A DNA stretch of 64,000 bases. Source: Moorena sp. SIOASIH (lineage in GTDB: Bacteria; Cyanobacteriota; Cyanobacteriia; Cyanobacteriales; Coleofasciculaceae). How positions within the stretch are numbered: the stretch's first letter is position 1; each line of letters opens with the position of its first letter. Made by a program: the position numbers and the translations under genes. The stretch covers positions 869,053-933,052 of the forward strand of contig NZ_JAAHIH010000001.1 in the NCBI RefSeq assembly GCF_010671925.1. The letters run 5' to 3'. Under the pieces are notes generated by a model. The model saw nothing but the letters and a program-made list of their open reading frames with translations, made no database searches and was not told the DNA's origin. Positions 7,205 to 64,000 of the stretch are shown here, one piece after another.

Positions 7205-7830
7205 GGCGTTGACACTCCCCGGTCTAAAGACACGGGGATTCTTTGTTCGCAGACTCGACTTGCTCAACCAGGCCGGAACCAGGAAAAGTAGAGGTCAAAT
7301 CTCCCAAAGCGTTTGGATTTAAGATCCAGGTTCCGACGTGCCCCGCCGTACCCAAGGCTTGTTTAAGGATGTTGTTCGCGTAGCGTCGGCTTCGCCGAAT
7401 CGCGGCGTTATGATCTCTATCCAATTGACATCCACACTTACAGGCGTGAGTTCTAGTTGATAGGGATTTTTTAACAACTTCGCCACAATTAGAGCAATTT
7501 TGGCTTGTATAGGCAGGATTAACTGCAATAGTTATCTTGCCAAACTTGGTGCCAAAGTGCTCCATCCATTTCCTAAATTGATACCAACCTGCATCGTTAA
7601 TAGACTTAGCAAGACAATGGTTCTTTGCCAGATTCTTGACTCTCAAATCTTGCCTTACGGCACGCTTCGCGAACGTAAGCGATCAAGTCGTTAGACCGAA
7701 CTACGCAACGCGCCAGTCTCTTGGCGTGTTCTATGCGCTTCGCGCAGGCTACGCCAACACGTTGCCTACTTATTTTGAGATGTTGTCTCCCTAATCTATT
7801 AACCGCTTTCTTGCGAATTGATGTTTTTTG
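7205..7830 (-). pseudogene. tnpB: 5'-truncated tnpB (IS200/IS605-family) remnant; intact ORF portion 7224..7646
   Basis: The 140-aa ORF is ~80% identical to the C-terminal RuvC-III/Zn-finger part of the full-length TnpB at 58403..59599. Nucleotide similarity continues out of frame to ~7830. A right-end-type hairpin sits at 7215-7243. Confidence 0.7.
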
Positions 7831-17305: not shown

Positions 17306-17512
17306 GCTGTTAGAAGGCAAAAGGCAAAAGGCAAAAGGCAAAAGGCAGAAGGCAAAAGGCAGAAGGCAAAAGGCAAAAGGCAAAAGGCAGAAGGCAGAAG
17401 GCAAAAGGCAAAAGGCAAAAGGCAAAAGGCAAAAGGCAAAAGGCAAAAGGCAGAAGGCAGAAGGCAAAAGGCAGAAGGCAAAAGGCAAAAGGCAAAATGC
17501 CAAAGTAGTTTA
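17290..17512. repeat. (AAGGCARA)n octamer tandem array, ~27 units
   Basis: Direct reading. Both frames give artefactual KAKGKRQ / AFCLLP ORFs. Confidence 0.95.
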
Positions 17513-26032: not shown

Positions 26033-28045
26033 ATGGCAACGATCCAGGAAATAATTCAACAAGCTCCAAACCCGTTTGACACCGTGACCTTTACTACGGG
26101 TAATTTTTGGGAAGATCCAGACAATGGAGCTGTTAATGTCAAATCGATTCATCAAGATGAAATTAATCAGATAACCACCACCCTCAGTGCGGTGACTCAA
26201 GACCATCGACCCCGCACTATCTTACTGGCTGGTGATCCTGGTGCGGGGAAAAGTTATCTGTTAAAACGGCTCAAACAGCAGCTCAATCAAGACGCCTTTT
26301 TTGCTTATATCGGTCCTTGGGCAAATAGCGATCGCATCTGGCGCTATATCCTCAGGGAAACCGTTGAAAGTCTGCTCAAAATCCCAGAAGGAGAACAAGA
26401 GTCTCAGTTACTGCTGTGGCTCAAGAGTCTCCCGGTCTTTAAAAAAACCGGCTGGCTCCGGAATGAGCGACAACAGTTTATTGGTGACCTCAGAGCTACC
26501 TATCCAACCGGAATTCATAGAAATAAGGAATTTTTTGGAGTCCTCTATGAACTAACTAATCCAGAACGATATCACTTGGCTTATCAATGGTTAAGGGGAG
26601 AAGATTTAGATGAAGATGATTTGGAAACCCTTCGGGTCAGAGGCTCTATAGATAACGAAGACGATGCTCAGAACATCTTAATCAACTTCGGGAGAATTTC
26701 TTCATACACCAAGCCAATTGTGCTGTGTTTTGACCAATTGGATAATATTCCTCGTTTGCCTGATGGTTATCTGGATCTAGAAGCTCTGTTTAATGTCAAC
26801 TCTACCCTCCATACTCGCTATCCCAATAACATGCTGATTATAATCAGCATGATTAGCAATACCTTGAGACGGAATCAAAAACAAATTAAACCCGCTAATA
26901 TTGCTAGACTTAATCATAAAATTCTGCTCAAAAGGATTACCCTAGAGCAAGCAGAATCCCTTTGGGCAAACCGACTATATTCGTTACATCAGCAAGCTGA
27001 TCAAAAACCAATTTTACCGATTTATCCTTTAACTCGGCAAGACCTCGAAAAAGCATTTCCTGGTGGCAAAACTACTCCTCGGGAGACATTGACCCTGGGA
27101 AATCAGCTAATTGAAAGATATAAAACTCAGATAGTTAATAGTTCAGATCCATCAACCAAGACTAAATCAACTAGTCAAGATGATACCGCTGGTAAATCAA
27201 TACCGAGAGCAGAAAAAGCCTTAGCTTCATTTAAATGGAAGTGGCAAAAAGAATTTCAAAAAACTGAGCAGAAAATTACCCGAATCGGAACAAATTATGA
27301 ACCTGAATTGATTAAGATGTTACGAGAGGCATTAGAAGCTCTGGAGGTCAAGGATGTTAAATCAAACTTTTTGTCAGGTAGTTTTGCCAGTTATTCCCTA
27401 AGTTACCAGCTGCCATCATCCCAGGAACGGATCGGATTAGTCTGGGGAGAAACTACTAATGGTAACAGCTTTTATCATCTGATGAATGCCTGTGATAAAG
27501 CTATTCAAGGCAATCGCTGTCAAACCTTATACCTAATTCGCTATACAGAAGTTAAAAAACGTGGTCTTAAGGGGGACAAACTCTACAGCAAACTATTCAA
27601 TGGTTCTGGCCATATTCACCTCAAATTAGAAGACCTCTCCTCTGTCTATTACTTAGCTACTTATCATAGCTTAGTTAATCAAGCTTTTTCCCAAGAGTTA
27701 GTGCTTGCTGATACAATACTAACACTGCCAGAGTTACAAGATATAATCCGAAAATCGTTAATTTTGCAGGATTGTCCCTTACTACAAGAGTTGAATATTT
27801 TTCCTAGTAAGGTTAACGATACTCAACTTGTTACCAAGCCGGTTAAGGAATTTGTGATAAATCTGCTCAAACAGAATCAAATTATTGGTCATAATGTTTT
27901 AATTAAAACTACTCAGAATAAATTGACTTCCATCAAGGAAATAGCAATTCACCAAGGAATTAAGGAACTGTCTCAGGAAAATAAAATTAAACTTCTCCCT
28001 GTGGATGGTTCCCTAGATAAACAATTAGTATGTTTGGTACCGTAA
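26033..28045 (+). CDS. P-loop NTPase, NACHT-like STAND family
   Basis: Walker A GDPGAGKS. Walker B hhhhFDQLD resembles NACHT hhhhDGhDE. Long alpha-helical C-terminal region. Confidence 0.6.
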   Translation: MATIQEIIQQAPNPFDTVTFTTGNFWEDPDNGAVNVKSIHQDEINQITTTLSAVTQDHRPRTILLAGDPGAGKSYLLKRLKQQLNQDAFFAYIGPWANSDRIWRYILRETVESLLKIPEGEQESQLLLWLKSLPVFKKTGWLRNERQQFIGDLRATYPTGIHRNKEFFGVLYELTNPERYHLAYQWLRGEDLDEDDLETLRVRGSIDNEDDAQNILINFGRISSYTKPIVLCFDQLDNIPRLPDGYLDLEALFNVNSTLHTRYPNNMLIIISMISNTLRRNQKQIKPANIARLNHKILLKRITLEQAESLWANRLYSLHQQADQKPILPIYPLTRQDLEKAFPGGKTTPRETLTLGNQLIERYKTQIVNSSDPSTKTKSTSQDDTAGKSIPRAEKALASFKWKWQKEFQKTEQKITRIGTNYEPELIKMLREALEALEVKDVKSNFLSGSFASYSLSYQLPSSQERIGLVWGETTNGNSFYHLMNACDKAIQGNRCQTLYLIRYTEVKKRGLKGDKLYSKLFNGSGHIHLKLEDLSSVYYLATYHSLVNQAFSQELVLADTILTLPELQDIIRKSLILQDCPLLQELNIFPSKVNDTQLVTKPVKEFVINLLKQNQIIGHNVLIKTTQNKLTSIKEIAIHQGIKELSQENKIKLLPVDGSLDKQLVCLVP

Positions 28046-28320
28046 GCTATCAGCAATCAGCAATCAGCAATCAGCTATCAGCAATCAGCTATCAGCAATC
28101 AGCTATCAGTTATCAGTTATCAGCTATCAGCTATCAGCTATCAGCTATCAGCTATCAGCTATCAGCAATCAGCTATCAGCTATCAGCTATCACAGGCTAG
28201 AAGCCTGTGCCACACTACTTGAGGTGCCATTGGCCAAAGACTGACGGCTGACCGCTGACGGCTGACCGCTGACGGCTAAAGATTATTCTACCATAGCTAA
28301 AATTCGGATAACAAGCGCCA

Positions 28321-36272: not shown

Positions 36273-36760
36273 AAATAAGGGAGTAGGGAGTAGGGAGTAG
36301 GGAGTAGGGAGTAGGGAGTAGGGAGTAGGGAGTAGGGAGTAGGGAATCGGGAATCGGGAATCGGGAATCGGGAATCGGGAATTAAGAATTAAGAATTAAG
36401 AATTGGGAATTGGGAATCGGGAATCGGGAATCGGGAATAGAAATTATCACAATTTATTTAGGTTCCCTATAACTTTCAACTTTGAACTTTCAACTTTGAA
36501 CTTTCAACTTTCAACTTTCAACTTTGAACTTTCAACTTTGAACTTTCAACTTTCAACTTTCAACTTTCAACTTTCAACTTTCAACTTTCAACTTTCAACT
36601 TTCAACCTTCAACTTTCAACTTTCAACCTACTCTCAACCTTCAACCTTCAACCTTTCAACCTTCAACCTTCAACCAACCTTAAGCCTTCAACCTACTTTC
36701 AACCTTCAACCTACTTTAAACCTTCAACCAACTTTAAACCTTCAACTAACTTATACTTTT
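36270..36760. repeat. 490 bp of consecutive heptamer arrays (GGGAGTA, GGGAATC, AAGAATT, CAACTTT/GAACTTT, CAACCTT)
   Basis: Direct reading. ORF 36403..36843 is an artefact of the arrays. Confidence 0.95.
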
Positions 36761-41922: not shown

Positions 41923-42129
41923 ATGACTATTTGGGTAAACGAGCAGATTGATCCATCAGGTCTTCTATACTCTTGTATTGCTACATGCAACGAAGAGCAG
42001 GCTAGGGATTGCCACGAGTCGTTTCAGAACAACTTGACTGATCAGCAAAAAGCAGCGGGTTGGGTTGCCCGATTACGCACAGTTAATTCTTGGGATGAAG
42101 TGCCCGTGAATACCTTGAAACTTAATTAG
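41923..42129 (+). CDS. small hypothetical protein
   Basis: 68-aa ORF. No motif. Confidence 0.3.
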   Translation: MTIWVNEQIDPSGLLYSCIATCNEEQARDCHESFQNNLTDQQKAAGWVARLRTVNSWDEVPVNTLKLN

Positions 42130-42650
42130 AATGTAGAATGAAGAATTAAGAATCAAGAATTGAGAATTGAGAATCAAGAATTGAGAATTGAGAATCAAGA
42201 ATTGAGAATTAAGAATTAAGAATTAAGAATTAAGAATTAAGAATTAAGAATTAAGAATTAAGAATTAAGAATTAAGAATTAAGAATTAAGAATTAAGAAT
42301 TAAGAATTAAGAATTAAGAATTAAGAATTAAGAATTGAGAATGAAGAATTAAGAATTGAGAATGAAGAATGAAGAATGAAGAATTAAGAATTAAGAATTA
42401 AGAATTAAGAATTGAGAATTCTGCCTTCTACATTCTACATTCTACATTCTGCATTCATTCTACATTCTGCATTCATTCTACATTCTACATTCTACATTGT
42501 ACATTCTACATTGTACATTCTACATTCTTCATTCTTCATTCTTCATTCTTCATTCTTCATTCTTCATTCATTCTTCATTCTTCATTCATTCTTCATTCTA
42601 CATTCTTAATTCTTCATTCTTCATTCTTCATACTGACCTTCTAAGCCCAA
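42130..42650. repeat. inverted heptamer arrays (AAGAATT / GAGAATT ... then CATTCTA / CATTCTT)
   Basis: Direct reading. The arms are partially complementary. Confidence 0.9.
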
Positions 42651-51439: not shown

Positions 51440-52870
51440 ACTACCCCGGCCTACTTCGTTGTTCGCGAAGCGTGGCCTACGGCCAGGCCGGGGCTTCCAG
51501 CTTCACGGAAGAACGCCTTAGCTTAGACGGGCGTCCTCGCTTTGGTCTTACTTCTTCGACCCTGGCGTTGACCTCCCCCGTCCCAGAGGAGGATAGCATT
51601 CTGATCCCTTCTGCCCTAATATTCTTGGCCGCATTACCGTCTCTATCGTGGTGAGTTCCGCAACTTGGACAAACCCAAGTCCTTACATCTAGCGGCAACT
51701 CCTTGATACGGTAATGACAACTAGAGCAGGTCTTAGAGCTGGGGAACCACCGGTTTATTTCTACTAAAACTTTCCCTTCTTTTTCGCATTTATAGGAAAG
51801 GAAGTTTACAAAGGTTCCCCAGCCTAGATCAGAAATTGCTTTAGCTAGTTTGTGGTTACGAACCATGCCCTTGACGTTTAGGTTTTCGACTACCACTACC
51901 TGATTCTGGTCTACAATTTTTCTAGATAGTTTGTGCAGGTAGTCTTGGCGGACATTTCCAATACGTTCATATACCTTAGCTACAATCTTACGAGCCTTTT
52001 TGCGTCCACTGCTGCCCTTCTTCTTTCGGGCTGCAATGCGTTGTTTTTTGGCTAGTTTTTTCTCGGATCTATCTATAGGCTTGGGATTGCCAAATTTAGA
52101 GGTCTTTTCGCCGTCATAGGTAATAGCAAAATCCTTGATACCCAAATCAATCCCTATCACCTTTCCCTTCGTTGATGGCTTTACACTATCGGATTCGTAT
52201 TCCATCAAAACAGAAGCGTAATATTTGCCAGAAGGTGCTTTGCTGACTGTTACAGTTTTTATTTCCCCATCTAGTGGTTGATGAATTACAGCCTTGACAA
52301 CTCCTAATTTTCCAGGGAACTTTAGGCAATCACCCACCTGTTTAACATTTTGGGGATACTGAATTGATTGGCGATGATGATACGATTTAAATTTGGGATA
52401 TTTAGCTCTACCTTGGCCTATTGGCCACGCTACGCGAACAAAAAAGTTTTGATATGCACGACTAAGGTTTAGACTCACAGATTGCCAGACCTGGGAGTAA
52501 CAATCCTTTAGCCATTCAGTCTCCTTTTCTTTCTTGAGTTTTGGAAGCATAGAGTTGAGTGCAGATTGTTTCAAGCCTTTGCCAGTTTCCTTGTAAGTTT
52601 CTATGCACTGATTCAAGGCATAGTTCCACCACCAGCGAGCACATCCAAAGTGCTGGGCTAGTATCATTACTTGTTCTTGTGTGGGATAGATTCTGACTTT
52701 GACGGCTTTATGTTTCACTGCACTCAACCTTTTTATCGACCTGGATTACTATTATATAAGTTTTGTATTAAGACGTCAAGGTATAAAGTCAATTTTCTGG
52801 CTCGCTATCCATCCCCAACCTACTTGGCCGTAGGCCACGCTACGCGAACGTAGAGGTTGGGGAATTCCGC
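51440..52870. mobile_element. tnpB-only IS200/IS605-family element (IS1341-like)
   Basis: Terminal hairpins: RE 51445-51492 CCCCGGCCT...AGGCCGGGG and LE 52815-52862 CCAACCTAC...GTAGAGGTTGG. Both ends carry the inverted motif CGCGAAGCGTGGCCTACGGCC. Confidence 0.7.
51477..52727 (-). CDS. tnpB: TnpB (OMEGA RNA-guided RuvC-like nuclease, OrfB_IS605 family)
   Basis: N-terminal VRIYPTQEQ...ARWWWNYAL, RuvC triad (IGIDLGIKDF, ENLNVKGM, DRDGNAAKNI), and Zn ribbon CSSC...CPSCG. Confidence 0.85.
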   Translation of the reverse strand: MSAVKHKAVKVRIYPTQEQVMILAQHFGCARWWWNYALNQCIETYKETGKGLKQSALNSMLPKLKKEKETEWLKDCYSQVWQSVSLNLSRAYQNFFVRVAWPIGQGRAKYPKFKSYHHRQSIQYPQNVKQVGDCLKFPGKLGVVKAVIHQPLDGEIKTVTVSKAPSGKYYASVLMEYESDSVKPSTKGKVIGIDLGIKDFAITYDGEKTSKFGNPKPIDRSEKKLAKKQRIAARKKKGSSGRKKARKIVAKVYERIGNVRQDYLHKLSRKIVDQNQVVVVENLNVKGMVRNHKLAKAISDLGWGTFVNFLSYKCEKEGKVLVEINRWFPSSKTCSSCHYRIKELPLDVRTWVCPSCGTHHDRDGNAAKNIRAEGIRMLSSSGTGEVNARVEEVRPKRGRPSKLRRSSVKLEAPAWP

Positions 52871-55292: not shown

Positions 55293-58259
55293 TCATCCTT
55301 CAACCGTACTAGATAAGTCAGTAGGAACAACTACACACTCCAACTCCGCCTTGTGACTCTCCTGCTGGTTCTCCAAATTAATTGCGATCGCTTCAATTCT
55401 GATTTGAGTCGTGCCTTGGGGTATAACTAATTGAGTCATTGCCTCCAGCTCCCCAGCCGCATTGGGGAGTAAATCTATAATAGAACGGGTTTCCTGGAGC
55501 AGAGAGCGAGTTTGGACGTCTTTAACCCACAATTTAATACATAAACGAGATTGACTAGGAGGAAGTTTTATGGTAACCATTACCTTTTCTCCAGCAACTA
55601 ACTCCCTCGTAGTCGGTATTGATAAAGTGGGTGCTGCTAAGGTCGCATCCAACTCTAGGGATGAAAGATTCTCCAGTTTAGCCTTCAAGTCATGTTGCTT
55701 GGTTGCTTTAGGTTTTGTCGGTTGTGGGGCTATTTCTCGATCGTCCACTACAATTTCCTGAGTCGTCCAATCGTGACTAGTAATACCAACTCTAGGGGGT
55801 GTTTCTGGCGTTGCTAATTCTGAAGGAACTAGGGGCAAATCCTGAGATTCTGTCATTGACTCCAAGACCTTTTCTGGAAATTCCCTAACCTCTCCTTGAT
55901 TGCTAGCCTTTTGATTCCTCTGTTCATTTTCCACTGCTGATTGCTCTTCCCCAGCAGGATTACTCTCTGGGGATAATTCTAACCTCAGCAATTCCAACAA
56001 TTCATGATCTTCAGCTAAAGCACTCAACCGTGACCAAAAACGCTCTTCCATGTTTAAGGCTCGGAAAGATTCTTCTAAACCGAGCGACTCAGGATCTTGT
56101 ACAGACTCTAGAGTCTTCGTAGTATTGAATAATTGGTTTAGTTTGGAATTATTGAGCTGGGTATCAACTGATTCTGAATCCTCTAACTGATCATCTGTCT
56201 CAGATTCGTCAATTTCACTAATCTCAATAGTTTGGATTGGCTCAGATTCCATTAGGGAATTAATCAGCACTTCAGAAGCATCATTAGAATTAGATAAGAC
56301 CTCGGACTTTATCTCTAAAGTACTATCTTCAGTACTATCTTCCGACTGTTCTACTGTGTCTTGAACTACTGTGTCTTGAACTACTGTGTCTTGAACTACT
56401 GTGTCTTGAACTACTGTGTCTTGAACTACTGTGTCTTGAACTACTGTGTCTTGAGGCTGTAACTCTGACCCAGTATCTTTATCCCCATGCTCTAGTTCTG
56501 GATTGGCTGTAGTGGAGGAATCTTGATCATCTAGGGAAACTGACTCAGATACTTTAGACTGATCTTGGACATCTTCGTGCTGTGCCTCAGGGTCAGCCAC
56601 CGACTCGATTGTAGGCAAATTGGGCAATTGGATAGATTTAAAAGTTGTGTCACTCAGCTGATGGTGGTACAGTTTTGGTGGTAAAGAGCGTTTAGAGATA
56701 GGTTGCAAGAACAGAGATGGATGGTTTTGGGGTAGCTCAACCAGATCCAGGGGAGTCTGCTCTAAGGGGTCTTCATCTAATAATAGAAGGTCTTGATCAG
56801 GTTGATCAGATTTTGCAGATGCAGCGATCCGATTAGCCAGTACTACCATGGTTTCCATTGGCATCCCCTGATTCCCTGGCACAATTACTTCTAATAAATC
56901 CTCTACATTAGCTGTAACCGTAAATTGTTGAGTGGCTAAAGGAGTTGATTTTGAGTTATAAAGGGTTATTTTTCCTAAAATTAGACCACTTTGGCAATCC
57001 GTTGGAATATCTAGACTATGGCTAAACCCCAAAGATAACTCCTGTTGAGATAGGGAGTACTCAACATCTAACAAACGTTTTCCTGTTTGAGGAAACCGCA
57101 ATTGATAGCGTAGGGTAGCAGGAAATAAGTTTTCTAAAACACTATCTAAAACACTAACCGTTATCCCATCACCATTATTATAATTATCATTATCTAATAA
57201 CAATTCCCCTTTGATAGTCAAAGACTCTCCTCGCCTTGCCAGGAAAATTTCCTTATCTAGTCTTAGGGTTAAACCGTACTTATTAACCTCTGTATCTGAA
57301 ACCCAATCTGAATCAGAAGTTTTTCTTAGCTGTTGGTTATCTTCAGATTCCCTATCTTCCAACTCATCCAATACTGGCTGAAGGACCTGTTGTAGTAGTT
57401 GCTCCAAAGTCTCCAGAGATTCCTCCATGATGGAATTCTCAACAGTCGATTGGAGTGGTAAGTTTTCCGATATAGTTGCTGTTGGTTGTTGGTTGCTTTC
57501 AGGATTAACAGGTGCCTCTGGGTAAACCTCTTCTACCCCTTGCAAAACCGTCTCTTGGCTAGGACTAGATTCCTCTTGGCTAACCCCCATTGCTGCTTGG
57601 GCTTGGTCAACAGGTAACTCTGGCGCAGCAATGGTTATGGGTTGTTCTTCTGGTGGTGTTATCTGACTCTGGTACTCCTGAGGGTTAGAAAACTCTGAGC
57701 TAGCATCTGTTGCTTTCAGGTCATTAGCAATAGTATTGGTGGAGGGAGAATCAACAGCTAGCTCAGGTGTAGTCAAGGAATTGTCTATTTGAGGCGACTG
57801 AGTATCAGTTTGGGTTGCTTCTACTGGGGTGGATTCTACTGGGGTGGATTCTACTGGGGTGGATACAGAGGTTTTAAGGGGTGTCTCTACATCTTTGACC
57901 TTGGGTATGACTTGTAGCGCTAAGGATTTTCGCCATGACTCACCCAGAAAATCGTCCATGATATCGTTACTGCAACGTAACTTCCACAGACCAGGTTTAA
58001 GCTTGGTGAAAGGAATCACCACCATTAACCCTTCTGAGTTGGTGCGACGCCATCGTTTCTGGGACTTGCGTTTGGGTGGCACTTGCTCTGTGCTATCATA
58101 GGTGACGCAAATTTCTACATCAGTATTGGGCAAGTTGGAACGAGCCACTATCCGATACCGACCAGATTCAATTTCCATCTCAGAAGACTTGATTGGCTTC
58201 CAGGAGCGCTCTCCCTCTTTCTGTAGTAGAAATTCCCAGTACTTCTTAGGCATTGTCAA
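55293..58259 (-). CDS. large acidic low-complexity protein with in-frame tandem repeats (DTVVQ x7)
   Basis: 988-aa ORF. Globular N- and C-termini, and a central Glu/Asp/Ser/Thr/Pro-rich region with 15-nt perfect repeats at 56356-56455. Confidence 0.5.
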   Translation of the reverse strand: MTMPKKYWEFLLQKEGERSWKPIKSSEMEIESGRYRIVARSNLPNTDVEICVTYDSTEQVPPKRKSQKRWRRTNSEGLMVVIPFTKLKPGLWKLRCSNDIMDDFLGESWRKSLALQVIPKVKDVETPLKTSVSTPVESTPVESTPVEATQTDTQSPQIDNSLTTPELAVDSPSTNTIANDLKATDASSEFSNPQEYQSQITPPEEQPITIAAPELPVDQAQAAMGVSQEESSPSQETVLQGVEEVYPEAPVNPESNQQPTATISENLPLQSTVENSIMEESLETLEQLLQQVLQPVLDELEDRESEDNQQLRKTSDSDWVSDTEVNKYGLTLRLDKEIFLARRGESLTIKGELLLDNDNYNNGDGITVSVLDSVLENLFPATLRYQLRFPQTGKRLLDVEYSLSQQELSLGFSHSLDIPTDCQSGLILGKITLYNSKSTPLATQQFTVTANVEDLLEVIVPGNQGMPMETMVVLANRIAASAKSDQPDQDLLLLDEDPLEQTPLDLVELPQNHPSLFLQPISKRSLPPKLYHHQLSDTTFKSIQLPNLPTIESVADPEAQHEDVQDQSKVSESVSLDDQDSSTTANPELEHGDKDTGSELQPQDTVVQDTVVQDTVVQDTVVQDTVVQDTVVQDTVEQSEDSTEDSTLEIKSEVLSNSNDASEVLINSLMESEPIQTIEISEIDESETDDQLEDSESVDTQLNNSKLNQLFNTTKTLESVQDPESLGLEESFRALNMEERFWSRLSALAEDHELLELLRLELSPESNPAGEEQSAVENEQRNQKASNQGEVREFPEKVLESMTESQDLPLVPSELATPETPPRVGITSHDWTTQEIVVDDREIAPQPTKPKATKQHDLKAKLENLSSLELDATLAAPTLSIPTTRELVAGEKVMVTIKLPPSQSRLCIKLWVKDVQTRSLLQETRSIIDLLPNAAGELEAMTQLVIPQGTTQIRIEAIAINLENQQESHKAELECVVVPTDLSSTVEG

Positions 58260-58329: not shown

Positions 58330-58520
58330 TTTTGCTTATTCCCACCCTCGGGATTTTTGACACTCCCCGTCCTAGAAGAACGGGGATTCTTTAATCAACG
58401 AGTCAGCGTGGCTCTTCCAGACCGGAATCAGGAAGAGTAGAGGCTGATTCTCCTAAAGCGTTCGGATCTATGATCCAGGTTCCGGTATGCCCTACCGTAC
58501 CCAAGGCTCTTTTTAGAATA
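58330..58520 (-). ncRNA. putative TnpB omega-RNA (reRNA) overlapping the tnpB 3' end and RE hairpin
   Basis: By analogy to characterised TnpB systems. The conserved 3'-end hairpin is shared by all three copies. Confidence 0.3.
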
Positions 58521-59680
58521 TTAATGGCTGCATTATGGTCGCGATCCAACACACACCCACACGAGCAAGTATGCGTTCTGGTTGATAGCGATTTTTTGAC
58601 AACTTCACCACATTTTGAACAGTTCTGACTAGTATAAGCAGGGTTAACGGCTATTGTTTGCCTGCCAAACTTTTGTCCAAAATATTCCAGCCATTTTCTA
58701 AATTGATACCAACCTGCATCATTAATAGACTTGGCAAGACAATGATTTTTTACCAAATTTTTTACCCTCAAGTCTTCGTAAGCGACCACGTCGTTAGAGT
58801 GGATTACGCAGCGCGCCAGTCTCTTGGCGTGCTCTTCACGCTGCCTACTTATCTTAAGGTGTGTTCTACCTAGTCTATTAATGGCTTTTTTGCGATTGAC
58901 TGAGCCTTTCTTTTTGCGAAAAACCCGACGTTGATAAAACTTAAGCAGTTTCTCACCCTTACGATAAAACCTTGGATTTGTCTCTACACCTCCCTTGGAG
59001 TCGGTATAAAACTCCTTAAGTCCAACGTCTAAACCAACGTTGGTGTGCGAAGGCTCTAAAGGTTTGCTAATATCAACTTTGATACAAAACTGAACATAAT
59101 AGCCATCCGCTCGGCGCACTAATCTAACTCGTTTTATCAGCGTCTGATCGTAACGCCATAACTCCCAGGTTCCTTTTAGTTTTAGTTTCCCAATACCTTT
59201 TTTGTCTAAAAAATTTATTGATTTAGTATCGGGGGATAGTTTCCAGCCAGATGTTTTATACTCAACTGACCTAGAAAACTTCTTAAACTTAGGATATCCC
59301 TTTTTACCAGGGACTTGTTTTTTACATTTATCGTAAAATCTAGAAATTGAGTTGTAAGCTCTTTCAACTGAAGCTTGACAGGCATGAGAATTTAAGGCTT
59401 TAACAAAGGGATACTCAGACCTGAGCCACGTATTATGACGATACAAGTCTTTTTGTCCTATACCTTTATTGTCCATCCAGTAACGGATGCACTTGTTCCG
59501 AACAAACTGACCGGTGCGAATCGCCTCATCAATCGCAGCATATTGAGTTTTATTCCCTTTGACCTTAAATTCTAAGACTATCATTTTGACGTGGAACAAC
59601 TCTACGTAATATTATAGCACGAAAAAAATAAAGCCGTCCTTCTAGGACGGGGCTTGAGGCCCAAATTTTTGGTCAACCAC
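58354..59680. mobile_element. tnpB-only IS200/IS605-family element, full length
   Basis: RE hairpin 58362-58389 (CTCCCCGTCCTAGAAGAACGGGGATTC) and LE hairpin 59632-59652 (GCCGTCCTTCTAGGACGGGGC). Same ends as the mini element at 24163-24696 and the truncated copy at 7205. Confidence 0.7.
58403..59599 (-). CDS. tnpB: TnpB (RuvC-like RNA-guided nuclease)
   Basis: RuvC triad VGLDVGLKEF / EDLRVKNL / DRDHNAAINI, and Zn finger CSKCG...CSCGC. Confidence 0.85.
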   Translation of the reverse strand: MFHVKMIVLEFKVKGNKTQYAAIDEAIRTGQFVRNKCIRYWMDNKGIGQKDLYRHNTWLRSEYPFVKALNSHACQASVERAYNSISRFYDKCKKQVPGKKGYPKFKKFSRSVEYKTSGWKLSPDTKSINFLDKKGIGKLKLKGTWELWRYDQTLIKRVRLVRRADGYYVQFCIKVDISKPLEPSHTNVGLDVGLKEFYTDSKGGVETNPRFYRKGEKLLKFYQRRVFRKKKGSVNRKKAINRLGRTHLKISRQREEHAKRLARCVIHSNDVVAYEDLRVKNLVKNHCLAKSINDAGWYQFRKWLEYFGQKFGRQTIAVNPAYTSQNCSKCGEVVKKSLSTRTHTCSCGCVLDRDHNAAINILKRALGTVGHTGTWIIDPNALGESASTLPDSGLEEPR

Positions 59681-59922
59681 CGGATTCGACAGAGTGACTG
59701 AGATCTACTCCGTTTAAGGGGATATGAAAGCAATACCACAAAATTTACCCTTAAGATGTGCCTGTTGATACTAAATTTTAGGGCTAATCTTAAGCAGTAA
59801 GCAGTAAGCTATCAGTTATCAGCTATCAGCATTCAGCCGTGAATGCTGACCTTAAGGATTCTTCTAAGCCTGAGATATCGCCTGTTTGTGGCATTGCTGA
59901 ACGCCACTTTGAGAGCTATAAT

Positions 59923-60282
59923 TTACCAATTCATCAGTTCATCTATTACAGTGCGAATACGATAAGTGTTCCGGTCACAAGTATTGACACAAATAACATC
60001 TACCCTGACATAATCACCTTTGGGAGCACATACAAGATTAAAAATAACGTTATTTCCTCTTTTATAGCGCCATGCGTGAAATTCAGTTTTTTCGATTTCT
60101 CCTCCATTTACAAGAATATCCATTTTTTTTATAGCTATATTGTTACAGCTTGTCTCACTCCCACTACTAACGGCATGCCAACCTGTACTACCTCCCTCTC
60201 CGGTTATTGCATTAGCTAATCCTTGGTTTAGGGTCATACTTACAATAGTTGCAACAGATAAAATGCTTAATTTCTTTAACAT
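59923..60282 (-). CDS. small secreted Cys-containing protein (signal peptide) in an AT-rich cassette
   Basis: Leader MLKKLSILSVATIVSMTLNQGLANA and six Cys residues. Local GC is far below the window average. Confidence 0.45.
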   Translation of the reverse strand: MLKKLSILSVATIVSMTLNQGLANAITGEGGSTGWHAVSSGSETSCNNIAIKKMDILVNGGEIEKTEFHAWRYKRGNNVIFNLVCAPKGDYVRVDVICVNTCDRNTYRIRTVIDELMNW

Positions 60283-60318
60283 CGTGATTCCTCCTTATCT
60301 CTTGTTAACTAATTTTAG

Positions 60319-60369
60319 AACATCTTATTTTTATTGATTATTCTTAATAATCAATAAAAATAAGATGTT
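60319..60369. promoter_or_regulatory. perfect 24-bp-arm palindrome (AACATCTTATTTTTATTGATTATT ctt AATAATCAATAAAAATAAGATGTT) immediately upstream of 59923..60282
   Basis: Direct reading. Candidate operator or bidirectional terminator. Confidence 0.6.
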
Positions 60370-60772
60370 TTTTGAAAACTTAAAATTACTTAATATTTAT
60401 TGTGTATCAATTTAAGGCATTGCTGAATTAAAATAGATAATAGCGTTTTCAAACGAGTTGTAAAGTCATAGATTGTCGAAAAAGGCAAGAGACAAGAGGC
60501 AAAAGGCAAGAGGGAAAAGAGCTCCAGAGTTTTATAGCAAACTCAAAAAAGACCTTTTCAGTTTACATCTCAAATACAAATGCTATAAAACCGTAGGGGG
60601 TAAATCTCAATGCATGCTGTTTGCTCCGGTGGGTGGAATAGGCATCTTGCCCGTGGGTGGAACGGGCATCTTGCCCGTGGGTGGAACGGGGCGGGTTGTC
60701 TCAACCCTGGCTACGAGGCGGAACATGAATGCTCCCCTAACGCACCCTACTGGGCTAATCTTAAGGATTCAT

Positions 60773-61354
60773 CTAAGCCTCACAGATAGCCTGTCTGAAG
60801 TACCTAATCGCTTCAACTTTGGAAGCCATCATCACACACCGAGACAATAAGTCAAGATCTAAATCTGGCAAGACTTCACTCTGGGAAATTTTTTCGTAAC
60901 CATCAGAGCGCAAGTGATACAAAGCAAATACACCATCCTCCCAAAACCAAACTTCGGGTACTCCTAATGCTTGGTAACGACTTAGTTTGCTCTGATTACC
61001 ACTGGTAAAGACAACTTCAATAGAGAGGTCTGCAATCACTCCTGAGGATCTACCAATTAGGTAAGATTGGTCTGCTTGTGCAGATGCTTCCCCTTCCTTC
61101 TCTTGGGTAAAGCTACCGGTTGGAGTAAACTCAATTTGTTTTTCAACAAAATAAGTACCCAGCAACAGTGCTATGACACCACTGAAGACTTCATGGTCTT
61201 GGGAAACTGCCAATATTTCTACCTCACCCCTGTAGTAGAACAGTCGAATTCCTGGGGAGTTGACGAACCCCGCTTGAATTGATTTGAAGTTATCCCAACT
61301 TACCCCGGAGTGGACTAGCCGTTGGTCTTTTTGTTTATCTACGACATAGGTCAT
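60773..61354 (-). CDS. Uma2-family (DUF820) PD-(D/E)xK endonuclease-like protein
   Basis: Characteristic EVxS/ExxD...EY/WxxD core (VEILAVSQD...GVPEVWFWEDG). Confidence 0.8.
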   Translation of the reverse strand: MTYVVDKQKDQRLVHSGVSWDNFKSIQAGFVNSPGIRLFYYRGEVEILAVSQDHEVFSGVIALLLGTYFVEKQIEFTPTGSFTQEKEGEASAQADQSYLIGRSSGVIADLSIEVVFTSGNQSKLSRYQALGVPEVWFWEDGVFALYHLRSDGYEKISQSEVLPDLDLDLLSRCVMMASKVEAIRYFRQAICEA

Positions 61355-61522
61355 GGCGATTATTCCTTGTTCACCATAGAAAGCCTAATCAATAAGTTTG
61401 CGATCGCAAATTCATTACTACCATCTTTGTAACCATTCAGCTGACAGCTGAGGGCTGACAGCTGAGGGCTGACAGCTGACGCATCTTTCCTTACCAGATT
61501 AGCGAGATTTTACCCCCTTCAG

Positions 61523-62377
61523 CTATTGAACATTTGTCACCCTACCGAGACGAGTAAAGCGAATTTCAATTCTGCGCCTAGTTTGATCATCCTTTAAACT
61601 AATCGGAGCAATTTGCCCATTAGGTAAAATTAACTGGGCTGCAGAATAAGCTCGAAATTGCAGCCCCTTGAGCCGCCCTTCTTTAGCTTGAATCTCACGC
61701 AGTAATTGCACAACTGCCAAAGCTCGCATCAGTCCTAAATCAGCATTAGATCCTGGTCTAAGTTGACTGATAGAGGAATTTTTATTAACCACATTCCCAA
61801 TAGTTTGGTCGATATTGCTACCACCAAGATTAGGTTGACCATCGGTGTGACCAATTAGTTCTACTACATTAATTTCATAGTCCTTGGCATTGCTTTCAAT
61901 AGCAGGGACAATTTGCTGCCGAATATAATCCTTCATCGCTGAGGGAATTTCCGCACTGCCGGAATCAAATCGGTAATTCCCCTGATCTTTGATTACAATA
62001 ATCGGAGGTGTATCTGGTGGTTTTGGTGCTGCAGCAATCTGTACCTGCAAAGACCTAACCTGCTGTTCTAGTGCCTTTTGGCGGTCAGTTGAGCGCTTTG
62101 CCCTAGCTCTCCAAACCGCCACACCACGCTCAAGTTGATCAACCCGAGCTGCCTTAGCTCGTAATTCCGCATTCTCCCTTGCTAATTGCACCACTTCATC
62201 TTCACTTCTGGTGAGATCATCAATGGTTGATTCCAAGGAAGTTTGTGCCAGCACAGACTTCAAAATAGACAGCAACAAAAATAAGATCAGGATCATGAAG
62301 GCATTAGACATTAAGTCTGTAAAGGCTGGCCAGAGATTTATCTCTTCATTCCAATCATTATTTCGTGAACGACGCAT
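61523..62377 (-). CDS. MotB/ZorB-like protein: N-terminal TM with conserved Asp, coiled coil, C-terminal OmpA-like peptidoglycan-binding domain
   Basis: LWPAFTDLMSNAFMILILF (MotB plug/TM with D). OmpA-like VELIGHTDGQP...NADLGLMRALAVVQLL...RRIEIRF. Confidence 0.75.
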   Translation of the reverse strand: MRRSRNNDWNEEINLWPAFTDLMSNAFMILILFLLLSILKSVLAQTSLESTIDDLTRSEDEVVQLARENAELRAKAARVDQLERGVAVWRARAKRSTDRQKALEQQVRSLQVQIAAAPKPPDTPPIIVIKDQGNYRFDSGSAEIPSAMKDYIRQQIVPAIESNAKDYEINVVELIGHTDGQPNLGGSNIDQTIGNVVNKNSSISQLRPGSNADLGLMRALAVVQLLREIQAKEGRLKGLQFRAYSAAQLILPNGQIAPISLKDDQTRRRIEIRFTRLGRVTNVQ

Positions 62378-62693
62378 TTTATCAATTCTCTGTCAATTTT
62401 CTAGTTATTATTCTTCATTTGCCGTAAGCATTCAGCTATCAGCTATCAGCTATCAGCTATCAGCTATCAGCTATCAGCTATCAGCTATCAGCTATCAGCT
62501 ATCAGCTATCAGCTATCAGTTATCAGCTATCAGCTTATGGGCTACGGGCATAAGCTTAGATGGGCAAATCCCCAGACTTTAAATTCTCATTAATCTCGAA
62601 CTATTAAATTCTCCCCTCCGAGGTTTATTTTAAGCTGACTGCTGACAGCTGACTGCTGACAGCTGACGGCTGACAGCTAACGATTTGCCAGGT

Positions 62694-64000
62694 TTATCGT
62701 TCACTGCTCAAACGCCTGACTAGCTCTCCTACAGTCATATCTTGGGTTATGCGAGTTGAACCATCAACTTGATTGGACTCAGTCATTTTTGTGCTAATCT
62801 TAGCAATTTCTTGATTGGTGTTATTGAGATGATTGACAACTTTTTCAAGATTGTGTCGCATAATTTCATAATTATGCTGGTCAGTATTAGCTTGCTGAGT
62901 AAGACTTTCATCAAGGCGATCGCCTAAAGCCTGAATTCCCAGACTTACTCCTTCGGTATAGCTTTTAACATTGGACACTAACTTAGCCAATTCAGCCTGA
63001 ACGTCACTCAAGCTATCGCTTCGAGAAACAATCCGTTGCTCTAATTGATCAAGCCGAGCGATCGCTGACTGAAATCCCTGTGCTCCTTGCTGAAGTTGGG
63101 GGATAATCTTCCCTAGGGCTTGTTGACTGTGATGATGCTGTTTCACTACATCTAGAGAAGATTGTCTGAGGGCACTGATTTCTTCTGCCAATTTTACCAA
63201 CTTAACCCCATGACGTTGAAGTTCAGCCATTGCTACTCCCATCCCTTGGACTGATTGCGATAGCATACTAGCTGACTCAGAGAAACTGCTTTGGGTTCTG
63301 GTTAAATCTACTGTAGCCTTAGATAATTTTTGAGGAAACTGGCTATGCTCAAAGGTTTGAGCAACTTGGGTAAATTGAGCAGCAGCTAACTGAAATTCCT
63401 CAGCACTTCTGGCGATCGTACTAGCAGCTTGGAAGAATCTATTGTAAGAATTTTCGGCTAGTTTAAGCACTTGAGTGTTAGCATCAGCAATTTCTTGCAC
63501 TTTTTCTCGTAGTGAGGATTCCACTGCCTCTCGAACAGTCTGACCAAATCTCGCCAAAAAGCTTTCAAAAATATTGGACATCCCCTGAACCAATATATCC
63601 AGGCGTGTTTGCCCTACTAAAGTGGGCTGATAAATATTATCCAAGTAGTCCTCTAAGTAACTAATTAGATTATTTTTGGCTAGCCCTGTATTGAAGGCGA
63701 CGTTAACTACGGTTAAGACAGCACTAAAAAAGATAGCGGTTAAGCTAGTGGTAAAAGCAATCCCCATCCCTTCTAGGGGTTGCTGTAATTGGTTAACTAA
63801 AGTATTGATATCGGTAGCATCAGACTGACTGATTGTTTGACTCAGTGCTAACAAATTGATGGTGATGCCGATAAAGGTACCTAGTAAGCCAAACGATAGC
63901 AGTAAGCTAGGCATAATCCGACCAATGTAATCAATTTGGTCACAAGATATGCCAACAACTTTCTCGTGGCTGTAGGCTTGGTCAATTAATGCGCCTGTAT
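62694..64000 (-). CDS. MotA/TolQ/ExbB-family proton-channel protein with ~310-aa C-terminal coiled-coil tail (ZorA-like); N-terminus lies beyond the window edge
   Basis: Signature TM3/TM4 motifs GLLGTFIGI and EGMGIAFTTSLTAIFFSAVL, then a long heptad-rich tail. The ORF is open to the window end. Confidence 0.7.
   Translation of the reverse strand, partial: TGALIDQAYSHEKVVGISCDQIDYIGRIMPSLLLSFGLLGTFIGITINLLALSQTISQSDATDINTLVNQLQQPLEGMGIAFTTSLTAIFFSAVLTVVNVAFNTGLAKNNLISYLEDYLDNIYQPTLVGQTRLDILVQGMSNIFESFLARFGQTVREAVESSLREKVQEIADANTQVLKLAENSYNRFFQAASTIARSAEEFQLAAAQFTQVAQTFEHSQFPQKLSKATVDLTRTQSSFSESASMLSQSVQGMGVAMAELQRHGVKLVKLAEEISALRQSSLDVVKQHHHSQQALGKIIPQLQQGAQGFQSAIARLDQLEQRIVSRSDSLSDVQAELAKLVSNVKSYTEGVSLGIQALGDRLDESLTQQANTDQHNYEIMRHNLEKVVNHLNNTNQEIAKISTKMTESNQVDGSTRITQDMTVGELVRRLSSER

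Follow-up and report, generated by a model that had tools for sequence, protein, structure and literature searches.

The closest described relatives of the gene pair reported here are ZorA and ZorB of the Zorya anti-phage systems. Residues in the second and third transmembrane (TM) helices of ZorA are described as the ion filter of the ZorAB complex (Hu et al., PMC11946911), and a cytoplasmic element of "two helices plus beta-sheet" has been described as specific to Zorya (PMC12505986). A second line of work concerns the tubulin-like protein FtsZl1, for which OmpA-like genes in the operons and vertical inheritance in cyanobacteria were reported (Makarova and Koonin 2010, PMC2875224); a MotA/ZorA-like partner or motor in these operons went unrecognised in that paper, and no description of motor genes of FtsZl1 operons, or of the cyanobacterial pair treated here, was found in the literature searched. 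The DNA analysed was a 64 kb stretch from Moorena sp. SIOASIH (the whole of which is called the window), in which three minus-strand genes were read from the list of open reading frames (ORFs) and their translations: A (ZorA-like), B (ZorB/MotB-like) and a gene of the Uma2/DUF820 family (Table 1). A first-pass annotation of the sequence had taken them for a variant of Zorya with an Uma2 nuclease as the partner of the motor. We consider it probable that A and B form a peptidoglycan-anchored, proton-driven 5:2 motor with a conserved role in cyanobacteria, to which the Uma2 gene is incidental.

Both A and B are real genes, far beyond chance, with orthologues in hundreds of genomes. The MotA-family helices GLLGTFIGI and GMGIAFTTSL, followed by the tail of about 310 amino acids (aa), were found on the minus strand where the first-pass annotation had placed them. 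Within the window 434 of the 509 residues of A are visible; the full length was taken from Moorena orthologues (96–99% identical), which supplied the N-terminus that runs beyond the sequence, so that only TM1 and about 45 further residues fall outside the window.

Similarity of A to ZorA was determined by profile, sequence and fold searches. The PADLOC models ZorA1 and ZorA2 matched the window protein over TM2–TM3 and beyond (ZorA1, 3.3e-13), and ZorA models matched 43 of the 45 A-family members (best 1.7e-17). The Pfam family MotA_ExbB (PF01618) gave no match to window A at E<=0.1, and weak sub-threshold matches in three of the 45 relatives (best E 0.0054). When the motor part of A (residues 1–238) was searched against all PDB sequences, ZorA chains were the only motor proteins recovered (Shewanella type I, 0.0016; Sulfuricurvum type II, 0.0068; E. 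coli ZorA, 0.03–0.44), the remaining match being a weak one to ClpX (E=0.35). An AlphaFold (AF2) model of the monomer, built from an alignment of 45 homologues, has a predicted local distance difference test score (pLDDT) of about 80–90 for residues 1–230. TM1 comes first in it, then a pair of short helices and a beta-hairpin (the cytoplasmic element described as specific to Zorya), then TM2 and TM3, after which long helices extend as far as residue 484. With this model as the query, Foldseek placed E. coli ZorA entries at ranks 1–4 and ExbB and TolQ next. Across the A family, Thr116 and Ser160 do not vary; they align with the "GTF" of TM2 and the Ser position of TM3 in ZorA proteins, the residues described as the ion filter. 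The motif NQTSxQVLELHQxNQ in the tail is likewise conserved, with His363 and Gln367 invariant, and the conserved tail motifs suggest a site of specific binding instead of a passive spacer.

The partner B (NEO35529.1), which NCBI and UniProt records label "flagellar motor protein" or "hypothetical protein", consists of a single TM helix, a periplasmic coiled-coil linker of about 70 aa, and a divergent OmpA-like peptidoglycan-binding domain (GHTD, SNADLGLMRA). In the alignment of the B family, W16, FTDLM (with Asp21), GHTD, SNADLGLMR and RRRIExRF are invariant. The PADLOC model ZorB1 matched window B (4e-9) and 26 of the 27 family members, in agreement with the MotB-like partner first proposed. 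A profile of the family, searched against the PDB, found the peptidoglycan-binding domains of PomB, MotB and ZorB (1.2e-5 to 4.5e-5); the PomB domain scored best (1.2e-5), and Shewanella ZorB was matched from the TM helix onward (4.5e-5). The OmpA domain of the first-pass annotation is thus supported for the family, in which 18 of 27 members match Pfam OmpA (best 2.3e-7), whereas window B itself is divergent and falls short of the threshold (E=0.032). The conserved aspartate had been read as a plug residue: Asp21 is indeed invariant, but it is the TM ion-binding aspartate that corresponds to MotB D32 and ZorB D26. The combination that marks the superfamily of 5:2 ion-driven motors (MotAB, ExbBD, TolQR, ZorAB), a TM aspartate in B together with a Thr/Ser pair in TM2 and TM3 of A, is therefore present. 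By profile and fold searches the A–B pair is nearer to ZorAB than to MotAB, ExbBD or TolQR, and the first-pass view of A as ZorA-like, not as a flagellar or Ton/Tol stator, is upheld by the PADLOC, PDB and Foldseek matches.

The distribution of the family was determined by a genome scan, and relatives were present in 299 or more species genomes. Among these, the 80 best were cyanobacteria without exception and came nearly throughout from filamentous genera (Moorena, Hormoscilla, Okeania, Trichodesmium, Dapis, Lyngbya, Limnoraphis, Arthrospira, Planktothrix, Microcoleus, Kamptonema, Nostoc, Anabaena, Dolichospermum, Fischerella, Calothrix, Stigonema and others). Neighbourhoods were annotated by phmmer over 87 loci with queries derived from the neighbourhoods themselves; 85 pairs were surveyed. 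B follows A at every locus surveyed, and the neighbours are housekeeping genes (HisRS, SecA, GlnA, holB, tmk). In a neighbour-joining tree of A, the proteins cluster by genus and family. On the basis of this synteny and this tree, the pair is vertically inherited, unlike a defence island; the patchy, strain-variable spread typical of defence genes was not seen, A–B being present across filamentous genera with its synteny kept.

Directly upstream of A–B in 43 of the 85 pairs stand a conserved protein of about 370 aa (p370) and a Tubulin_2 protein of about 1080 aa (Tub2; Pfam PF13809, 1.9e-106), which is 55–85% identical between cyanobacterial orders and much more conserved than A. The resulting operon-like cluster p370–Tub2–A–B occurs in Nostocales, Microcoleus, Kamptonema, Aerosakkonema, Stigonema and others. 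Two further genes, p92 and p347, lie upstream of A–B in many genera and, in Nostocales, upstream of p370–Tub2–A–B. The order is p347–p92–p370–Tub2–A–B at several Nostocales loci, p347–p92–HisRS–p370–p329–Tub2–...–A–B in Aerosakkonema, and p347–p92–HisRS–A–B–p988 in Moorena; the Moorena block p347–p92–HisRS–A–B is thus the same one minus the p370–tubulin module. In the tree of A, all tubulin-less pairs form one clade, sister to the tubulin-linked pairs of Microcoleus, Kamptonema and Aerosakkonema. The Moorena locus has either lost the tubulin module or never had it.

Several observations on these neighbours were made in passing. By eye, the N-terminus of p370 in the family alignment (for example L006:1296-2408), VVLAIDLTESVG...VVWITDAPL, resembles a vWA metal-ion-dependent adhesion site (MIDAS) motif together with strand beta4 of vWA. 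Such a reading would agree with the operons of vWA and FtsZl1 genes described by Makarova and Koonin; neither Pfam nor PDB profile searches support p370 as a vWA protein. Just past the window end, p92 (L001:8132-8410) encodes 92 aa that are 60% identical between Moorena and Trichodesmium, and p347 (L001:6910-7953) encodes a 347-aa lipoprotein that has Cys20, the motif GRNDPF and a C-terminal domain that is conserved. Neither p92 nor p347 was matched by Pfam, PADLOC or the PDB; p347 looks PilP-like by eye, a likeness to which a profile search against the PDB lent no support. In Moorena, A groups with the tubulin-less Oscillatoriales clade, and the nearest relatives of B outside the genus are instead tubulin-linked Nostocales proteins (shared C-terminal ...FTRLGxVxxV); these differing affinities could reflect differences in rate or an old recombination inside the pair.

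The motor proposed for the pair would be built as follows. A dimer of B, with the proton-binding Asp21 in its TM helix, would use its OmpA-like domain as an anchor in peptidoglycan. Five A subunits, each with three TM helices, may form a ring around it in which Thr116 and Ser160 line the ion path and which would turn or switch around the B dimer. The five C-termini of A would bundle into a cytoplasmic coiled-coil tail, about 43 nm long if its 310 aa are scaled against E. coli ZorA, whose tail measures ~70 nm (PMC11946911). Through such a tail, partners in the cytoplasm could receive a signal or torque that originates at the envelope. The ancestral cluster would have comprised p347 (a lipoprotein), p92, p370, the FtsZl1/Tubulin_2 GTPase (~1080 aa), A and B, and with a tubulin-like GTPase in this cluster, a cytoskeletal or membrane-remodelling partner is likelier than a nuclease or any other class. 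We favour a constitutive role that links the envelope to the cytoskeleton or remodels membranes. More tentatively, long-tailed ZorAB-like motors may not serve solely in phage defence: they may include a vertically inherited core branch that was ancestrally associated with FtsZl1 and p370, of which the Moorena pair would be a derivative without a linked tubulin.

A number of results weigh against the proposed motor and its partner. In the search with ZorA and ZorB profiles that the first-pass annotation had suggested, the PADLOC models matched the pair, but the curated cut-offs of the NCBIfam ones were not reached (ZorA_2 against A, 31.3 bits with a cut-off of 100; ZorB1 against B, 15.8 bits with a cut-off of 400); scores so far under the cut-offs make the family a distant relative of ZorAB, with which it shares 16–18% identity. 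The PDB E-values are marginal (1e-3 to 1e-4), and the tail of the A model is of low confidence as a monomer. Neither the 64 kb window nor the 7–10 kb around the pair at eight Moorena loci contained a gene for a PF13809 protein, and two homology searches with Tub2 had no Moorena or Trichodesmium protein among their best 120 matches. These searches suggest that Tub2 is absent from Moorena, so that the proposed partner may be missing from this genome. Second copies exist in addition to the p92-linked pairs: Okeania sp. SIO3I5 has another A–B pair directly after Tub2 (L088:12256-14759), 42–43% identical to the window pair, and in Hormoscilla a second A is accompanied by no more than a B-like fragment, Tub2 not being adjacent at that locus (L015:18636-20950). 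In view of these, the pair in the window may be paralogous and have diverged in role. To these points is added a published interpretation of clusters of this kind, which underlies the main rival to the motor proposed here; that rival is likelier than a Zorya–Uma2 system, a motility stator or a Ton/Tol analogue.

According to that rival, p370–FtsZl1–A–B would be a fixed chromosomal conflict or immunity system of multicellular cyanobacteria, with the motor as envelope sensor and the polymerising, tubulin-like GTPase as effector or threshold device, and Moorena would have kept the sensor pair only. Clusters of tubulin, GTPase and vWA genes enriched in multicellular prokaryotes have been read as conflict systems (Kaur et al. 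2020, PMC7159879). Among characterised proteins, those most closely related to A and B act against phages, the family is nearly confined to filamentous genera, and the MIDAS-like start of p370 would suit such a system. We nevertheless regard it as rather unlikely: the between-order identity of Tub2 and the stable housekeeping synteny are unusual for defence genes; Tub2, p370, p347, p92 and p988 match no PADLOC model; no effector domains and no GTPase or HSP70 partners were seen; and the vWA assignment of p370 lacks profile or PDB support.

An improbable alternative is that A–B powers or regulates the gliding or hormogonium movement of filamentous cyanobacteria. The family is centred on filamentous and often gliding genera, B bears its public flagellar label, and the upstream p347 has a PilP-like appearance (lipoprotein, GRNDPF). 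These points are outweighed by the three TM helices and the ZorA-type cytoplasmic domain of A, which do not correspond to a four-TM MotA, by the poor fit of the A family to Pfam MotA_ExbB, and by the lack of pil or hmp genes in the A–B neighbourhoods looked up. In addition, the surface motility of cyanobacteria is driven by type IV pili.

The system originally proposed, in which ZorAB would sense phage entry and recruit or activate the adjoining PD-(D/E)xK nuclease Uma2, is judged very improbable. Certain facts speak for it besides the ZorAB-like nature of the pair. An Uma2 gene is indeed present on the same strand downstream of B, as the first-pass annotation had it, at a distance of 168 bp; its product matches Pfam PF05685 (35.2 bits, cut-off 27) and, over its full length, the PADLOC phage-defence candidate PDC-S17 (1.8e-67, 224.7 bits), a PDB sequence search giving no usable match. 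It is intact at this place in six of nine Moorena genomes. PDC-S17 is, however, a single-gene candidate, and the Uma2 protein was found to be an ordinary family member with no unusual trait. In the remaining Moorena genomes the gene is truncated (SIO3I8, where it lies beside a TnpB remnant) or absent (SIO3H5 and the complete genome PAL), while A and B are intact throughout, and at the more than 75 loci from other genera it never adjoins B. The adjacency of Uma2, whose lack of conservation the first-pass annotation had itself named as grounds for refutation, is thus not conserved. Type-defining soluble genes of Zorya were not found either: PADLOC gave no match to ZorC, ZorD, ZorE, ZorF or ZorG among Uma2, the 119-aa ORF described below, p988, p347, p92, p370 and Tub2, and none of ZorC–G was present among the called genes and Pfam families of nine loci, the 87-locus phmmer survey having used no Zor effector query. 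Of the features of Zorya, the locus therefore has the ZorA-like and ZorB-like subunits, and it shows neither the type-defining soluble genes, nor scores above the curated thresholds, nor the patchy spread. Given the unconserved adjacency, the housekeeping synteny and the lack of ZorC–G, the idea of a Zorya variant with an Uma2 nuclease has to be abandoned.

The interval between B and p988 was compared by blastn against six Moorena loci and two complete genomes (JHB and PAL-8-15-08-1) and proved to be an insertion hotspot, filled according to strain with MerR, DUF6326, insertion sequence (IS) elements, a methyltransferase or TnpB (Table 1). Homologues of p988 lie 3' of B in other genera (directly in Anabaena sp. 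4-3, and in Iningainema and others), so that Uma2 interrupts an older synteny. The TnpB element and the AT-rich cassette, which the first-pass annotation had noticed next to the locus as an IS and a cassette, were both confirmed. The former is missing at this site from four Moorena loci that align across it (L008–L011), and the latter occurs in some Moorena strains only: it is missing in PNG, SIO3H5 and PAL and stands elsewhere in the same hotspot in JHB. This hotspot received Uma2, the AT-rich cassette and the TnpB IS independently of one another, and Uma2 is not a partner of the motor.

A Ton/Tol-like envelope energiser, an analogue of ExbBD or TolQR that would pass proton-motive force to an outer-membrane process, is highly unlikely, since the three-TM topology shared with ExbB and TolQ and the target-normalised template modelling scores (TM-scores) of up to about 0.5, which make these two proteins the next-best fold matches after ZorA, are set against a B domain of the MotB/PomB/ZorB type without the ExbD/TolR fold, the lack of any TonB- or TolA-like gene nearby, and a 310-aa cytoplasmic tail that directs the output into the cytoplasm.

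Table 1. Features of the window (positions in the 64 kb stretch), contents of the B–p988 interval in Moorena strains, and positions of related loci (numbered with L).
Feature	Position	Strand	Details
A, ZorA-like subunit	62694..>64000	-	residues 76-509 of 509; open at window edge
A, TM2 GLLGTFIGI	63864-63890	-	contains Thr116
A, TM3 GMGIAFTTSL	63741-63770	-	contains Ser160
A, helical tail, ~310 aa	62697-63626	-	after TM3; predicted helical (AlphaFold model)
A–B spacer, 316 bp	62378..62693	.	heptamer arrays 62432-62535, 62633-62678
B, ZorB/MotB-like subunit, 284 aa	61523..62377	-	one TM helix, OmpA-like domain
B, Asp21 codon	62315-62317	-	in TM motif WPAFTDLMS
Uma2/DUF820 gene, 193 aa, NEO35528.1	60773..61354	-	Pfam PF05685
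AT-rich cassette	59838..60752	-	119-aa ORF 59923..60282; GC content 0.32 at 60000-60499
TnpB-only IS200/605-type element	58357..59667	-	ORF 58403..59599; inverted repeats 58365-58383, 59634-59652
p988	55293..58259	-	acidic Pro/Gln/Glu-rich 988-aa repeat protein, conserved N- and C-terminal domains
B–p988 interval, SIO3H5			empty; p988 directly after B
B–p988 interval, M. bouillonii PNG			Uma2
B–p988 interval, M. producens 3L and one metagenome-assembled genome			Uma2, AT-rich 119-aa cassette
B–p988 interval, SIOASIH (window)			Uma2, AT-rich cassette, TnpB IS
B–p988 interval, JHB			Uma2, MerR, DUF6326, ..., 119-aa ORF
B–p988 interval, M. producens PAL-8-15-08-1			MerR, DUF6326, DDE IS, methyltransferase, TnpB; without Uma2
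B–p988 insertion hotspot in Moorena	L089:8739-12081; L090:8183-12803		related loci
p370–Tub2–A–B clusters	L003:3528-10638; L006:1296-10331; L088:6798-14759		related loci

The spacer between A and B is longer in the window (316 bp) than in the family, where the median gap is 57 bp (85 pairs). A block of 260 bp within it (62422-62683) is polymorphic, being present in three Moorena genomes and missing from four (blastn). Heptamer tandem arrays are present in this spacer (Table 1), and a further one lies downstream of B at 61438-61480. Arrays of period 7, in the style of the short tandemly repeated repetitive (STRR) sequences of cyanobacteria, occupy many intergenic regions of the window, and no terminal inverted repeats were found to flank the spacer blocks. 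The insertions of miniature inverted-repeat transposable elements (MITEs) that had been postulated between the genes are therefore better described as tandem arrays of a kind common throughout the window. Long examples were recorded at 17314-17505, 28045-28192, 36278-36674 and 42124-42643, and units of the AGCTATC/GATAGCT type recur at several sites.

Other features of the region were recorded as follows. The 119-aa protein of the AT-rich cassette has an N-terminal hydrophobic, signal-like segment, and a perfect 24-nt inverted repeat (hairpin, 60319-60369) precedes its ORF. A 24-nt unit with a short palindrome of its own, GGGCAAGATGCCCGTTCCACCCAC, is present in 2.6 copies just downstream of Uma2 (60629-60690) and at no other site in the window. 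An imperfect 29-nt inverted repeat around Uma2 (60576-60604 / 61509-61537, 76% complementary) was rejected as a chance occurrence; it overlaps the end of B and misses the boundaries of the insertions and deletions among strains. Scans for promoters and terminators around A, B and Uma2 remained at chance level and were uninformative on co-transcription. Within p988, for which no family match was found, in-frame 15-nt tandem repeats occur at 56351-56454 (VVQDT x7) and 57819-57864. ORFs related to TnpB are also present elsewhere in the window (51477-52727, and a fragment at 7224-7646).

With the Zorya type with an Uma2 effector unsupported, there is no new defence system to record here. What the locus contributes is a well-defined and uncharacterised ZorAB-like family in bloom-forming, natural-product-rich cyanobacteria (Moorena, Trichodesmium, Dolichospermum, Planktothrix, Arthrospira). 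About half of the surveyed pairs are clustered with the enigmatic FtsZl1, which offers an entry point both to the function of FtsZl1 and to the origin of the Zorya sensor motor. Matches to ZorA and ZorB profiles in cyanobacteria should not be counted as defence systems. If a core motor linked to FtsZl1 were confirmed, it would represent the first relative of the Zorya motor with a "housekeeping" function, would give the orphan FtsZl1 family a function-bearing partner, and would connect peptidoglycan and the inner membrane with a cytoskeletal or membrane-remodelling assembly in the cytoplasm.

Among known systems, the window Uma2 is a typical member of Uma2/DUF820 (PDC-S17), a strain-variable accessory gene with no detectable link to A–B. 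With MotAB and PomAB, B shares the TM aspartate motif and the OmpA-like domain, PomB being the best PDB profile match for the latter, whereas A lacks the four-TM topology of MotA and the loop that contacts FliG (three TM helices in the model). No flagellar genes were found in the A–B loci looked up, and to our knowledge cyanobacteria have no flagella. The operons of FtsZl1/Tubulin_2 (PF13809) are the same as the tubulin-linked clusters in that the PF13809 protein and p370 directly precede A–B in about half of the pairs; they differ from those of the 2010 paper in that the A–B clusters contain no clear-cut gene for a vWA protein, kinase or GTPase. The best matches by sequence and fold are the ZorAB complexes (E. 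coli type I, 8QYD; Shewanella type I, 8VVN; Sulfuricurvum type II, 8VVI). Like ZorA, A has three TM helices, a small cytoplasmic domain (two helices, one beta-hairpin) that separates TM1 from TM2, polar Thr/Ser residues in TM2 and TM3 and a long helical tail at the C-terminus, which varies in length and is shorter in A (about 310 aa) than in E. coli ZorA (about 500 aa); like ZorB, B combines a TM aspartate with a peptidoglycan-binding domain. Unlike Zorya, the cyanobacterial pair is inherited vertically in housekeeping synteny, and its ancestral neighbours are a tubulin-like GTPase and p370.

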